Source: Candidatus Heimdallarchaeota archaeon (GTDB lineage Archaea; Asgardarchaeota; Heimdallarchaeia; Hodarchaeales; Hodarchaeaceae). From it: a stretch of DNA of 64,000 nt. The notes below the pieces were generated by a model, which was not told the origin of the DNA, made no database searches, and saw only the letters and a list, made by a program, of their open reading frames with translations. The position numbers and the translations under genes were made by a program. Location of the stretch: assembly GCA_011364965.1 (NCBI GenBank), contig RDOB01000002.1, positions 64,001-128,000 on the forward strand, written 5' to 3'. Below, piece by piece: positions 54,901 to 57,296 of this stretch (positions are counted from its first letter, which is position 1; each line of letters starts with the position of its first letter).

Positions 54901-55881
54901 AAAGATGCATTGACCTCCTCACTAGCCTATTATACGCGTCTTCCTCCTGAATATGTTATCCCTTTGGCGTTAAATGGAGTCACATCTGTAGCTCGTCTGA
55001 TTAGAACAGAATACTCTCAAATTGAGAATCCTATAAATATCACAAATGAAAAATATAGTGCAGCAAGAGAAACAGTCAATCTAATTGATATAATTACCCA
55101 TAAGAAAAGTGATTCTGAATTTAGAGTTCGGTTATCATCTCTTAAAGCCTTTACTTCAAAACAGCTTGAACAGATTCAGAAACTTGGCTATGATAATGTG
55201 ATAGACCTTTATTTCATGCTTGATACCGAACAGGTACCTAAGTCTTTAGTAGGGTCAATCGAATCAACAAAAACAGTTTTAGAAAAACCCCTAGCTCTAC
55301 TTCCCTCGGTTCAAGAGGCATTTCCTCAAAAGATACCTCTTCTTCACAATGCTGGAATAACCTCGATAATTGAATTCTTATTCTGGCCAAAAGACGAATT
55401 GGCTGAGCTTCTTGAAATAAAACGATATGAATTGTCGCGCTATAGAAAAATCGACATTGGAGCTCTTAGGAGAAAGAGAAACTTGGGAACACCAATAGAA
55501 AACTTCCCAAGAATTCCAGAAGAGCTTATTGAGACTTTTAAACAGATAGGAGTAGATAATATAGAAGATTTATATTTTCTTTTTACAAAATATCCTAATT
55601 TAATACCAGATGATGTTATCCCAAGAAAAATCATAACTACATGTATCAATGACCTCGAGAGCCCCGTTGTTAAATTACATGGACTACCCATACCAGTGGC
55701 ACAAGAATTAGTAAAAAAAGGGATCACTAGAATCATTGATTTCTTATATTGGCCTATGGACGACCTAAAACCTGTTTATGGTTTATCAGAGGCGAAAATT
55801 AAAAAAATAAAGGACTCAATTAGATTGAGGGAGAAATCTGACGTTGTTGGTAGACTAGACTCTTACATGAGGCAGGATTGA
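48937..55881 (+). CDS. top6B: DNA topoisomerase VI subunit B with ~1750-aa C-terminal HhH-repeat extension
   Basis: FFQDN..IAGF, RELVENGLDA, DNGSG, FGRVLTGS, QSRGRFGLG, H2TH FQGIGKKTA, transducer RYANRIPLLF and KIPFPETSKEYIA; repeats follow from about residue 570. Confidence 0.93.
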   Translation: MMTDAVKSSKKGKITKEKVVKRSAADFFQDNKAIAGFDNTMRVVFTSVRELVENGLDAAERIGKLPELIITISRLKKEEIAKLLNVSSFDSSEKLDFIRLTVRDNGSGVQSEFVPPLFGRVLTGSNYGARQSRGRFGLGAKMVLLNAMSSVDLPLIVKSKHMNEDFTSYHEIMINLAENEPIILLKREIPQETPEAIPESGTEVSVTFTGSWNLASRWIREYFSQLSLITPYARILVTYPDSESPEEMPRVVEDMPGYPQIAKVHPWGTDITQFKREIAVTKSPTVEEFLQDHFQGIGKKTAQEFLEYVKIDNTKSPHDLSASDIRRIVHEGFVMPDSDPKKRRDQKYFPFKRPSGDSLSPLSAELLAKGIQKELDPQFVRSATGDISAYSGHPFIVEAALAYGGPILSKEEGSKSGTPRIYRYANRIPLLFGAGNDIITKCVQKMNWRNYKININKAPIAIVVSVVSSKIPFPETSKEYIADVDELRKEIYKVLKKLARGLGTHLGKAERERREKQRQSRFESAAPKVIDNLSKILETTDTPFLLKSPEEIAKLEKALASAETKLIRRKYPPSPAISSIGEWLPMTTYATLVENGIQTIYQFLRAPNVELMSITGLSEKRVAEIKRLTVTSQNRATQSPSLREFEIFDKRLENDFNKYLEAPRIHRALTKRWLVSALDLFATPITQLRMVESLAEKLIYESKIQMINTLIAESTIPEIEFDTLPWMTNDLQKSLKSAKIHTLFEYLASFPEKLADLPYLNEILIEKIKQEIREGIKQGYIDGEKVIGAATFEWMDYRVTPRLRGRKVSKIIEFLETSNEKLSELSELTENLINKSKDEIKPHLARFNDENSLNTLPGINETMKADFMRVEVIGFIDYLSKPNSELVFVRGLVDNLIIQKQDEIMDQVSQQHELFPIKHAWWLDRELENKLKSIGINSVFDFVRYPTQQLAEIKNLDYQTLETIKNTYGTPIPLINDQDKVKLDNQQIICLEELEFIDDFSKIKPEELSKKLKDLMIYIQAPICYLPIPSKFYQILHHLGVSQIFDFLIWPDHDLHHKGGLPYKLIEEIKSEISLDMIQDLIKSKSVLVSAISNNLDSKLLDKIPADFTLQELYYRLPYADDRLANLQLSKTEIETLIDIFLTPISRIPSIKPKFINKLRNISINTFIDLITWEREVIAKIIGRDEKYIQSIFENFEQFTSGKPLFNLGVFNQTEIKALISQGFKTVEDLYFRANHETFGTMGVKWKKIERYQRILETPVAMLQTRSEQGKISHDALERLADNGIDQIIKLVYWPENELQSILKIPEKRIIELKDSIAIKEHGMPLTKVCGYNKKTLNTLLSYGIETIEDLYFSASEDMVDEDDDIEWDYVKQAIEALDIPISFLDGIIATKYIEKLQGKKIDTIIRFLITSEEELSEILGTPIDNVENLRQKINLIRFRESTETSISILEGLTRKQLRVLSEENISSIYDFIIANDESLASILEMDLEQVSSMKNNLNYDSIRIIKEEKMVPLVKISLFDKRIVKQLARMGIESLADLYYVATPKTFEESSISWQMIQDARAILDLPIEIIPEITKKEINTLKKAKIKIIFDLLMESPEELFKRTNIDAETIESLQNSIIIDELITILKRLSVDKFNFPKEYFAEIKKNKLDSAYDLISYENEDLFLSQEGKKKVRIDKNSWVDVSSILSIPLRLFMNFENEIMKGLKRKRIINLRDAYAASEEKFDGLFEDGGLDFLETLRVLDFKEIRDFLRISICFTPHISPEWLFSLINNSIYTIEDILSCELRDLTKILNSSLPRTRNFIKEISMNSTLKCLEEELIPLDKLSSIFSSEIITKLESIGYNSLQDFIIRITDATDIDGVSDVLKILNSPVNRLSDDIPLSEIRKLSQQGISTIRDWLIVQNSVISDIIDIEKDIIYELKRSFDFKSISEVSDVETSLNDYIEKGYIDFDELNKLGIRTIEDLQFIEIDTLSASEEFLSRIRSLKDALTSSLAYYTRLPPEYVIPLALNGVTSVARLIRTEYSQIENPINITNEKYSAARETVNLIDIITHKKSDSEFRVRLSSLKAFTSKQLEQIQKLGYDNVIDLYFMLDTEQVPKSLVGSIESTKTVLEKPLALLPSVQEAFPQKIPLLHNAGITSIIEFLFWPKDELAELLEIKRYELSRYRKIDIGALRRKRNLGTPIENFPRIPEELIETFKQIGVDNIEDLYFLFTKYPNLIPDDVIPRKIITTCINDLESPVVKLHGLPIPVAQELVKKGITRIIDFLYWPMDDLKPVYGLSEAKIKKIKDSIRLREKSDVVGRLDSYMRQD
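50650..55850 (+). repeat. About 28 degenerate tandem HhH/RadA-N-like protein modules in Top6B
   Basis: Recurring 'P[IL]..[LI].......L...GI.[TS][IV].[DE][FL]L' units, e.g. LVENGIQTIYQFL, LKSIGINSVFDFV, LLSYGIETIEDLYF, LHNAGITSIIEFL, LVKKGITRIIDFL; counted by eye. Confidence 0.8.
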
Positions 55882-57296
55882 ATAGTATGACTGAAGTACA
55901 AAGAATACCAATTCAATTAGAAGATTATGCTTTTACTGAACAGTTAAAAAAAATCCTTGTTCCAAAAGATGAATCTTTGAAGGGTATAAAGCAAATAGTT
56001 CAAACTGAGTTGAATCTTAAAAGAACGAAATATATCCTATTTTTTGGAGCAAAAAAAGGAAAAAATTTTCAGGAACTTACTAATAAGGATATGAGTCTAT
56101 TTTGGGAGCTAGCAGAGGCTAAAAATGTCGTCATTCGAGTTCGTAAGCTAGTAGATTTGTCAAAGGTCAAGAAATTAAGAGAAAATGCAGTTCAAGAATT
56201 AATTGATCTTCCAGTTTCTGTTTTAAAAGTTGATAATGTTACTCCACGAGAAACTAAAGCCAGATTGATAGATGTTGCTAAAACTTTTTTAGCAGAAATC
56301 GCAGAGGATCCAAAAAGCGCAGCTTTTCGCATTCCTTCACGGAGTTCTGAAAACGTTGGTTATGATGACACCTCAAAAATGGTTTTGCTTGGGTCTCAAG
56401 TTGTTGATCGGCAATTTCGTCATCTTAGTAGTGTTCAGAGCGTTGTACAACTAACAGGATTGATGCGTTATATTATAGAAATTTTGGAGACTGAAAAGCA
56501 TGCTACAAAACGACATCTTTTTTATCGTGATGTGAATCTTTTCAGTAATCAACGAGTTTCTGATAGCTTGATTGAGGATTTAGGGGCATTACTTCGTGTT
56601 TCACGTAATTCAATGAATGTAATTGCCTCTGCAAAAGGAAAAGTAATTGGTCGACTTTCATTTACCGAAGGTGGGGATCGTATTGATTGTACTCAAGGTT
56701 TAGGAGGTCATGCAATTACTCCAATGCTAGATCAAGTAGAGGATTTTGAGAGTGATGCTGAATTTGTTTTGGTCATAGAAAAAGATGCTGTCTTCCAAGA
56801 TCTTGCGGAAGACAAATTTTTTAATTATTTGCCTAGTATTCTAATAACTGCATCAGGACAACCAGATATGGCCACTAGAATGTTTATAAAACAAATTTAT
56901 GAAACCCTACAATTGCCAATACTAGGTTTTCTTGATGCTGATCCCTATGGATTAGATATATTGCGTGTATATTCAATTGGAAGTAAAGCTTTGAGTTTTG
57001 AAAGTGTTGAATTAGCAGTACCTGACATTCGATGGCTAGGTCTGCTTCCTTCAGATATCAAAGAGTATGCAATACCAAAATCTGTCTTGATTAAAATGAC
57101 TGAAAATGACATGAAACGAGCTGATGATCTATTGCAAGAAGATTTCGTCAAGTCTCGTCCACAATGGCAAGAACAAATTGAAATAATGAAAGTAACTGGG
57201 ATGAAAGCCGAGATACAAGCCTTAGCAAGTAAGAATTGGAGATATATGACAGAATCTTACCTACCATCAAAGATTGATGGTGGAAATTTCATATAA
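55878..57296 (+). CDS. top6A: DNA topoisomerase VI subunit A (Spo11 family) with N-terminal extension
   Basis: Catalytic Tyr in TKRHLFY, F.NQ..SD.LIED, Toprim VIEKDAVF, GQPD, DADPYG, KAEIQAL. Confidence 0.95.
   Translation: MNSMTEVQRIPIQLEDYAFTEQLKKILVPKDESLKGIKQIVQTELNLKRTKYILFFGAKKGKNFQELTNKDMSLFWELAEAKNVVIRVRKLVDLSKVKKLRENAVQELIDLPVSVLKVDNVTPRETKARLIDVAKTFLAEIAEDPKSAAFRIPSRSSENVGYDDTSKMVLLGSQVVDRQFRHLSSVQSVVQLTGLMRYIIEILETEKHATKRHLFYRDVNLFSNQRVSDSLIEDLGALLRVSRNSMNVIASAKGKVIGRLSFTEGGDRIDCTQGLGGHAITPMLDQVEDFESDAEFVLVIEKDAVFQDLAEDKFFNYLPSILITASGQPDMATRMFIKQIYETLQLPILGFLDADPYGLDILRVYSIGSKALSFESVELAVPDIRWLGLLPSDIKEYAIPKSVLIKMTENDMKRADDLLQEDFVKSRPQWQEQIEIMKVTGMKAEIQALASKNWRYMTESYLPSKIDGGNFI

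Follow-up and report, generated by a model that had tools for sequence, protein, structure and literature searches.

Topoisomerase VI (topo VI) belongs with Spo11 to an enzyme family that carries out decatenation in archaea and plants and makes the DNA breaks of meiosis. In canonical archaeal topo VI, represented by the Top6A chains 2zbk_A, 1d3y_A and 2q2e_A/9o0g_A, the catalytic subunit is 367–389 amino acids (aa) long, carries no N-terminal beta-grasp domain and is encoded directly after top6B, whose product is about 470–620 aa. An extra N-terminal helix, located beside the TopoVIB-binding helix, is common to Asgard and eukaryal TopoVIA (Brinkmeier et al. 2022, PMC9665070). The locus investigated here lies in a stretch of 64,000 nucleotides (the window) from Candidatus Heimdallarchaeota archaeon (GenBank assembly GCA_011364965.1, contig RDOB01000002.1, positions 64,001 to 128,000, forward strand), and positions are those of this stretch. 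Its top6A gene has the same 5Y-CAP tyrosine, Toprim glutamate and DxD motif as the canonical genes and likewise directly follows top6B, whereas canonical Top6A begins only at about residue 110–118 of the window protein, and the Top6B partner is 2314 aa long here. An original prediction, drawn from the letters of the window, held that an integral, non-conjugatable ubiquitin-like (Ubl) domain is fused to this Top6A, and the predicted fold, structural matches, profile comparisons and lack of a Gly-Gly described below bear it out. Our confidence is 0.9 or more in the identity of the Top6A N-terminus as an integral ubiquitin-family domain and in its coupling to a lineage of giant Top6B subunits.

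Residues ~1–88 of Top6A are predicted to form a beta-grasp domain with the ubiquitin superfold. Residues of this domain, of the helix after it and of the LPVSVLKVDNV motif are counted from the ATG start, and Pfam and 2zbk_A positions from an alternative TTG start described below. AlphaFold2 (AF2) returned the same b-b-a-b-b-a-b topology in both runs, with a predicted local distance difference test score (pLDDT) of 68 when 11 close orthologues were supplied and of 80.5 with 25 sequences from seven families (77–91 over the domain); the latter model is an ordered beta-grasp, not a disordered segment or another fold. The elements comprise strand 1 (residues 6–13), strand 2 (19–26), helix 1 (31–42), strand 3 (49–55), strand 4 (61–63), helix 2 (66–77) and strand 5 (81–87). 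The secondary structure listed in the original prediction agrees with AF2 element by element, except that ELTNKDMSL, which had been read as a loop, is modelled as the short strand 4 followed by the second helix. Strand 5 ends exactly at 56150, where the original prediction had placed the end of the domain. In a Foldseek search of the PDB, the top match was the NBR1 PB1 domain (3e-4), and the best 50 matches were nearly all PB1, Ubl, UBX, SUMO-like and RA/Ras-binding domains, with two to three superantigen or superantigen-like chains near the bottom. The exhaustive VIA structural scan of 48,161 chains matched the Par6 PB1 domain at Z 10.8, with a root-mean-square deviation of 2.2 Å over 79 residues, and its best 50 matches were all ubiquitin-superfold domains.

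Sequence profiles were compared alongside the fold. A family profile of 25 sequences aligned with ubiquitin (hhalign 91% over 63 columns, ubiquitin residues 6–69), and Ubl-only profiles of Hodarchaeales (family f1 in our numbering) and of the other families aligned with each other (hhalign 95%, E 2.8e-8). Against the PDB, the Ubl-only profile of the non-Hodarchaeales families matched chains of single ubiquitin and of FAT10 (E 3e-4 to 1e-2); with the f1-only profile, single ubiquitin scored ~7 bits per domain (E 0.1–0.5). Two orthologous domains from Candidatus Borrarchaeum exceeded the Pfam gathering cut-offs directly, both for ubiquitin (PF00240; 30.3 and 28.9 bits vs. 25.4) and for Rad60-SLD (PF11976; 32.3 and 31.3 bits vs. 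23.8), and the 463-aa Borrarchaeum Top6A is named 'ubiquitin-like protein' by RefSeq automatic annotation. A close-orthologue profile searched against 1.8 billion representative proteins returned Top6A fragments, and the other matches were mostly multi-repeat proteins; those fetched comprised three polyubiquitins (profile 15–71 against ubiquitin 7–63) and an unrelated repeat protein, P0018. The polyubiquitin E-values (4.5e-12 and 1e-18) are inflated by the summing of near-identical repeats, and weight was put on the broader profiles and the Pfam-passing orthologues.

No Gly-Gly followed strand 5 in the window protein (...VRKLVDLSKV...) or in any of the 25 aligned sequences, and nothing points to a release of the domain, which is therefore read as an integral Ubl rather than a modifier. 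In the loop between strands 3 and 4, G58-K59 aligns with ubiquitin G47-K48 (hhalign), and at least 90% of the 25 sequences retain K59. PB1 (PF00564) gave no match at E ≤ 0.01 in ten tabulated members of other families and was not among the 25 most-matched Pfam families at E ≤ 0.1 across all 25 sequences, while the segment equivalent to the OPCA region of PB1 domains reads KKGKNFQELTNK, which is basic and not acidic. Nor does the domain have a UBX-type R...FPR loop after strand 3, where the window protein reads GAKKGKNF and other families RSGKKW up to strand 4. Comparison of the Ubl profiles with the 77-aa ubiquitin of the same genome gave only 14–32% in hhalign, weaker than against eukaryotic ubiquitin, and lends no support to a recent derivation of the domain from that gene. 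A Pfam match to RMI2 on the window N-terminus (E 0.01–0.12; 12.5–16 bits vs. a cut-off of 29.4) was sub-threshold and was taken as chance. The orthologue of family f2 (G022, L013 3333–3722; 495 aa) is longer at its N-terminus and carries a Lys/Arg-rich insertion of ~16 residues between strands 1 and 2.

The presence of the long form among Asgard archaea was surveyed with a Toprim-model scan of 400 genomes, from which Top6A frame lengths were taken. Within the class, six of the seven sampled families (f1–f6) had Top6A open frames of 462–506 aa, and the seventh (f7) had frames of 402–417 aa; most other Asgard frames were about 389–424 aa. Family f28, which is Candidatus Borrarchaeum, carried two copies, one long (472–476 aa) and one short (389–391 aa). 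Of the remaining families, f3 corresponds to Kariarchaeaceae and part of f4 to Heimdallarchaeum aukensis, and the close relatives of the window Top6A are labelled Hodarchaeales. Within the order, 23 of 24 genomes conserve the Ubl segment without stops, and a profile search also detected the domain in two further families of the class. Genomes checked singly held one copy of Top6A (the window genome), two copies (one f28 genome) or two to three copies (three f7 genomes). The Ubl-form topo VI is the genome's only one in Hodarchaeales and most other Heimdallarchaeia. In a maximum likelihood tree of the last 365 residues, with the Ubl excluded, all 14 long forms fell into one clade (support 100/100) apart from all short forms. 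As the long forms are monophyletic on this core-only tree, the fusion arose once, and Ubl-Top6A marks a distinct topo VI lineage of single origin.

In this lineage, a Ubl-bearing A subunit of ~465–495 aa is paired with a B subunit of more than 2000 aa. The window Top6B consists of a GHKL-H2TH-transducer core (~545 aa) followed by a tail of ~1770 aa made of helix-hairpin-helix (HhH) repeats, with about 28 HhH units per Top6B. Partners were surveyed at 20 representative loci with flanking genes identified. A long Top6A stood directly after a giant HhH-tailed Top6B in all ten loci with enough upstream DNA, which answers positively the co-occurrence check suggested with the original prediction. 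Complete giant Top6B proteins measured 2312 and 2342 aa (f1), 2194 aa (f6) and 2293 and 2297 aa (Borrarchaeum). Others were still unterminated where the fetched DNA stopped (at least 2724, 2729, 2770 and 3118 aa, in f4 and f6), and one was cut at a contig end (at least 1089 aa, f2). Next to seven short Top6A genes, the adjacent Top6B had 543–1123 aa, and two further short-form loci (L025, L026) had no adjacent Top6B. In Borrarchaeum (L023 = G307:C6:515000-534999; L032), a canonical and a giant topo VI pair lie in tandem and only the giant pair carries the Ubl: the canonical pair combines a Top6B of 564–567 aa with a Top6A of 389–391 aa, and the giant pair a Top6B of 2293–2297 aa with a Ubl-Top6A of 463 aa from ATG (472–473-aa open frame). 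The giant Top6B of one Borrarchaeum genome ends in a basic KKTPA repeat. Public data contain 30 further Top6B proteins of the Hodarchaeales type, with lengths of about 2240–2330 aa.

Judging from its conserved residues, the Ubl-bearing Top6A should be a working enzyme, because the catalytic tyrosine and the Toprim metal site are kept and the genome has no other topo VI, the scan having found a single Toprim match there. Pfam matched TP6A_N to residues 189–248 (E 4e-18; 65.4 bits vs. a cut-off of 26) and Toprim to residues 296–466 (E 2e-62; 210.5 bits vs. 24.1), both in TTG numbering, and the Toprim match spans the full 170-position profile. The catalytic tyrosine (codon 56523–56525, in HLFYR) aligns with Y106 of S. 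shibatae Top6A (2zbk_A), and the conserved glutamate (VIEKDAV) and DADPYG (DxD) of the metal site align with 2zbk_A and 1d3y_A. The best PDB match of the protein was S. shibatae 2zbk_A (2.7e-59), with the Top6A of M. jannaschii and M. mazei also among the closest solved relatives.

The ATG is the likelier start of top6A, because the database gene calls and the starts of all orthologues align there. With the alternative TTG, at 55878, the protein would be 472 aa long and its start codon would share bases with the top6B stop (TTGA); with the ATG, stop and start abut. Both candidate starts take in the N-terminal extra segment. Residue 118 (TTG numbering) pairs with residue 9 of S. shibatae Top6A, which makes ~110 residues extra relative to crystallised Top6A. 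Short Asgard Top6A proteins (389–424 aa) also have a basic helix and then an LPxxVxxV motif, e.g., LPEGVHVVRELP, and since they share this stretch (residues 92–118), only residues ~1–88 are specific to the long form. Helix 92–103 probably belongs to the Asgard- and eukaryote-specific extra N-terminal helix region of TopoVIA. The LPVSVLKVDNV region had low pLDDT when modelled in isolation with AF2. Coordinates of the features are collected in Table 1.

Table 1. Features of the topo VI locus and of the adjoining genes in the window.
Feature	Position	Strand	Size or residues	Basis or remark
gyrB	44427–46421	+	664 aa	
gyrA	46427–48940	+	837 aa	
top6B	48937–55881	+	2314 aa	Open reading frame (ORF); Pfam Topo-VIb_trans 1.8e-51, RAD51D_N, HHH_5
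top6A	55887–57296	+	469 aa from ATG	ORF list and sequence
Integral ubiquitin-like beta-grasp domain (predicted)	55899–56150	+	residues 5–88	AF2, Foldseek, VIA, hhalign, Pfam-passing orthologues
Helix after the Ubl	56160–56195	+	residues 92–103	AF2 secondary structure; equivalent basic helix in short Asgard forms
LPVSVLKVDNV motif	56208–56240	+	residues 108–118	Invariant columns in close-orthologue alignment
5Y-CAP / TP6A_N domain	56442–56621	+		Pfam PF04406; residue alignment to 2zbk_A
Toprim domain of Top6A	56763–57275	+		Pfam PF21180; alignment to 2zbk_A and 1d3y_A
ORF	57522–58193	+	223 aa	225 bp after top6A; no Pfam match
Ras-family small GTPase	58210–58782	−		Pfam Ras 3.8e-35; about 900 bp downstream of top6A

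Charge and evolutionary rate were compared between the Ubl, the Top6A core and the Top6B tail. The Ubl was basic in all 25 sequences (net charge +2 to +10, isoelectric point (pI) 8.8–10.2; net +5 for the window copy), and the Top6A core had a pI of 5.0. The Top6B tail had a net charge of −51 and a pI of 5.15, with alternating basic and acidic blocks of 200 residues; an acidic overall tail is unexpected for a presumed DNA-binding HhH array. Between families, identity was 18–27% for the Ubl vs. 55–59% for the Top6A core, and within the genus it was 41% vs. 86%. Identity of the Top6B tail was ~0.1–0.3, with the best conservation at residues 521–640. The Ubl therefore evolves about as fast as the tail.

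For the role of the domain, we tentatively propose, at somewhat less than an even chance, that the Ubl serves as an interaction module inside the holoenzyme, at the junction of the A and B subunits. The Ubl would be located at this junction, directly preceding the helix with which Top6A holds the Top6B transducer at its end, and the Top6B tail would emerge at the same place. The basic Ubl could then dock on the proximal part of the acidic tail, possibly also on flanking DNA, and such docking would set or limit the placement of the HhH array with respect to the DNA gate. Binding of the Top6B tail was also one of the two roles suggested in the original prediction. An adaptor within the holoenzyme is the simplest reading in that the fast-evolving Ubl always occurs together with a tail that also evolves fast. 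When the Ubl (residues 1–106) was modelled in complex with Top6B 520–1000, both of two uncontrolled runs stayed below the mark, and the result counts neither way.

Several observations weigh against the overall explanation, that of a ubiquitin-family domain acting within a holoenzyme with the giant Top6B. The window's own domain gave no Pfam match to PF00240 at E ≤ 0.1; the window copy appears too diverged for one, and its membership of the family is assigned through orthology, profile comparison and the predicted fold. The co-occurrence with giant Top6B represents joint retention across at least seven families from a single origin and not repeated independent gain. At the f7 locus (L022, G072:C39:170500-180400), a Top6B of 1123 aa with an HhH tail of ~570 aa is paired with a 403-aa Top6A without the Ubl, and a second short Top6A elsewhere in that genome likewise has none. 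An HhH tail does not strictly need the Ubl, then, since f7 has one without it. In the tree of Top6B cores, f7 was sister to the giant clade with moderate support (85/92), and there is a hint, but no more, that the tail preceded the Ubl; f7 may be an intermediate or an independent state. Finally, the basic surface of the domain suits binding of DNA as well as binding of the tail.

A different role, which we consider unlikely and which takes up the proteasome/Cdc48 docking suggested in the original prediction, is that of a degradation or extraction handle, with the Ubl read by a ubiquitin-fold receptor of Cdc48 or the PAN-proteasome, or itself ubiquitylated, to unfold and remove Top6A trapped covalently on DNA. 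The window genome has a ubiquitin system that could serve such a handle: the gene for a free ubiquitin of 77 aa with a terminal Gly-Gly stands directly before a 331-aa E1/ThiF-like gene (L033 1477–2739, G000 contig 16), and two more ubiquitin-family ORFs on contig 1 match PF00240 above the cut-off. The Gly-Lys pair aligned to ubiquitin G47-K48, with K59 nearly invariant across all families, points in the same direction, as do the proteasome-binding Ubls hPLIC2, midnolin and FAT10 among the structural neighbours. A ubiquitin-fusion-degradation (UFD) pathway with a non-removable N-terminal ubiquitin is established in eukaryotes. However, a handle of this kind gives no reason for the Ubl occurring only with a giant B subunit, and its fast evolution (18–27% identity between families) is unexpected for the ligand of a conserved machine. 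The 'GK' is a general ubiquitin-family signature whose conservation need not mean a modification site, and the domain lacks a UBX-type FPR loop, with UBX structures only mid-ranking among the fold neighbours. Lineage coupling and similar rates would favour a role tied to the giant Top6B over a generic degradation handle. In a stronger version, the Asgard ubiquitin-Cdc48-proteasome system would read the Ubl as a permanent tag, or extend it at Lys59, the counterpart of ubiquitin K48, to clear topo VI trapped covalently on DNA; this would be an archaeal forerunner of the eukaryotic repair of topoisomerase-DNA adducts that depends on ubiquitin and SUMO, and of Spo11 removal, and it strikes us as distinctly improbable.

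As unlikely in our estimate as the plain degradation handle is direct DNA contact, in which the basic Ubl beside the Toprim domain would touch the flanks of the gate segment and add affinity, or sense bends or crossings, independently of the B tail. The positive net charge of the Ubl in 25 of 25 sequences, set against the core pI of 5.0, would fit such a contact, and the conserved strand 3–4 loop is itself basic (KKGK or SGKKW). The ubiquitin-like domain of SATB1, a DNA-binding protein, is also among the structural neighbours. Ubiquitin folds, though, are chiefly protein-binding modules, and the holoenzyme already has its array of HhH units in each B subunit for DNA binding. A high lysine content is, in addition, common in this AT-rich genome (31–37% GC).

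Self-association of the PB1 type, with head-to-tail pairing of Ubls within the A2 dimer or between holoenzymes giving higher-order assemblies on DNA, seems very unlikely. It draws on the best structural matches being PB1 domains, including those of the filament-forming NBR1 and p62, on a second helix (66–77) that is PB1-like rather than ubiquitin-like, and on SMCHD1, a GHKL ATPase with an N-terminal Ubl, as a neighbour at Z 8.7–8.8. Against this, the domain has no match to a PB1 hidden Markov model (HMM), its OPCA-equivalent region is basic, the acidic Glu-Asp of strand 1 is not conserved outside family f1, and the sequence profiles point to ubiquitin proper. We give next to no credence to a non-functional segment, whether a mis-called start or a decaying leftover of an upstream gene. 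The window copy has only the sub-threshold RMI2 match in Pfam, but an open frame and a conserved sequence are seen in 23 of 24 genomes of the order, and also in six other families; the next in-frame ATG falls inside helix 2, the fold prediction is confident, and a protein collection lists exact full-length proteins beginning at these starts.

Genes around the topo VI pair were also inspected. The genes gyrB, gyrA, top6B and top6A are co-oriented (44427–57296, forward strand), neighbours being either a few bases apart or overlapping at their stop and start codons, and the bacterial-type gyrase and giant topo VI look like one operon from this arrangement. The ORF that follows top6A has counterparts in the same place in four further genomes of the genus, at E 1e-51 to 1e-73. 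Its C-terminal part shows a kinase-like 'GIICDPYPANW ... IYYVDLL' pattern, with a weak lead to YrbL-PhoP_reg (protein atlas, score 0.94). The Ras-family GTPase beyond it is syntenic within the genus, and a Ras-like gene was found within 5 kb in only two of six loci from other families; none was present in the Borrarchaeum, Heimdallarchaeum or family f6 loci. Asgard genomes carry many small GTPases. A Ras-binding (RA/RBD-like) reading of the Ubl was set aside, as the adjacency is not kept across families and is probably due to chance.

Searches of the full-text literature on topo VI in Asgard archaea and Hodarchaeales, and on Top6A together with ubiquitin-like domains, found no paper describing a Ubl-Top6A fusion, and the word 'ubiquitin' occurs 0 times in PMC9665070, PMC11302465, PMC12680538 and the review PMC11894792. 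The statement in the original prediction that no such fusion had been described holds in this respect; it needs the amendment that RefSeq already labels the Borrarchaeum orthologue as ubiquitin-like. The domain is thus visible in databases, though not discussed in the searched literature. The Asgard and eukaryal TopoVIA with its extra helix alpha1 (PMC9665070) and the 'conserved Asgard Top6A' (PMC12680538) resemble the window protein in the helix-LPxxVxxV region (92–118), as found in short Asgard forms, whereas the window Ubl lies upstream of that helix and is restricted to one clade.

The present value of these results is a well-supported structural and evolutionary observation, and the Ubl, as a concrete and deletable part of the protein (residues 1–90), offers a way to probe the function of the giant tail. 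Among archaea, the Heimdall group of Asgard is the one usually placed nearest to eukaryotes. If the Ubl does talk to the Asgard ubiquitin system, ubiquitin signalling would have been linked to topoisomerase control before eukaryotes.

Among known systems, the nearest parallels to the domain are integral (type-2) Ubls, such as those of TBCE/TBCB, the DUSP-UBL of USP4/11/15, the SUMO-like domains of Rad60/NIP45 and the Ubl-GHKL arrangement of SMCHD1, in which the fold sits inside a larger chain without Gly-Gly and provides an interaction surface. These are its structural neighbours at Z 8–9. They differ in that none is fused to a Top6A/Spo11 catalytic subunit in the searched literature, and the window domain is strongly basic. 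PB1 domains (Par6, NBR1, p67phox/p40phox) give the best superpositions and have the same full second helix between strands 4 and 5; the window domain differs from them in having neither a PB1 HMM match nor an acidic OPCA, and its sequence signal goes to ubiquitin. Compared with canonical topo VI, the result is an unusual holoenzyme, with a ubiquitin-family domain on the cutting subunit and a B subunit four times the normal size, and the pairing of Ubl-Top6A with a giant Top6B defines a distinct topo VI subtype for whose recognition the sequence is enough.

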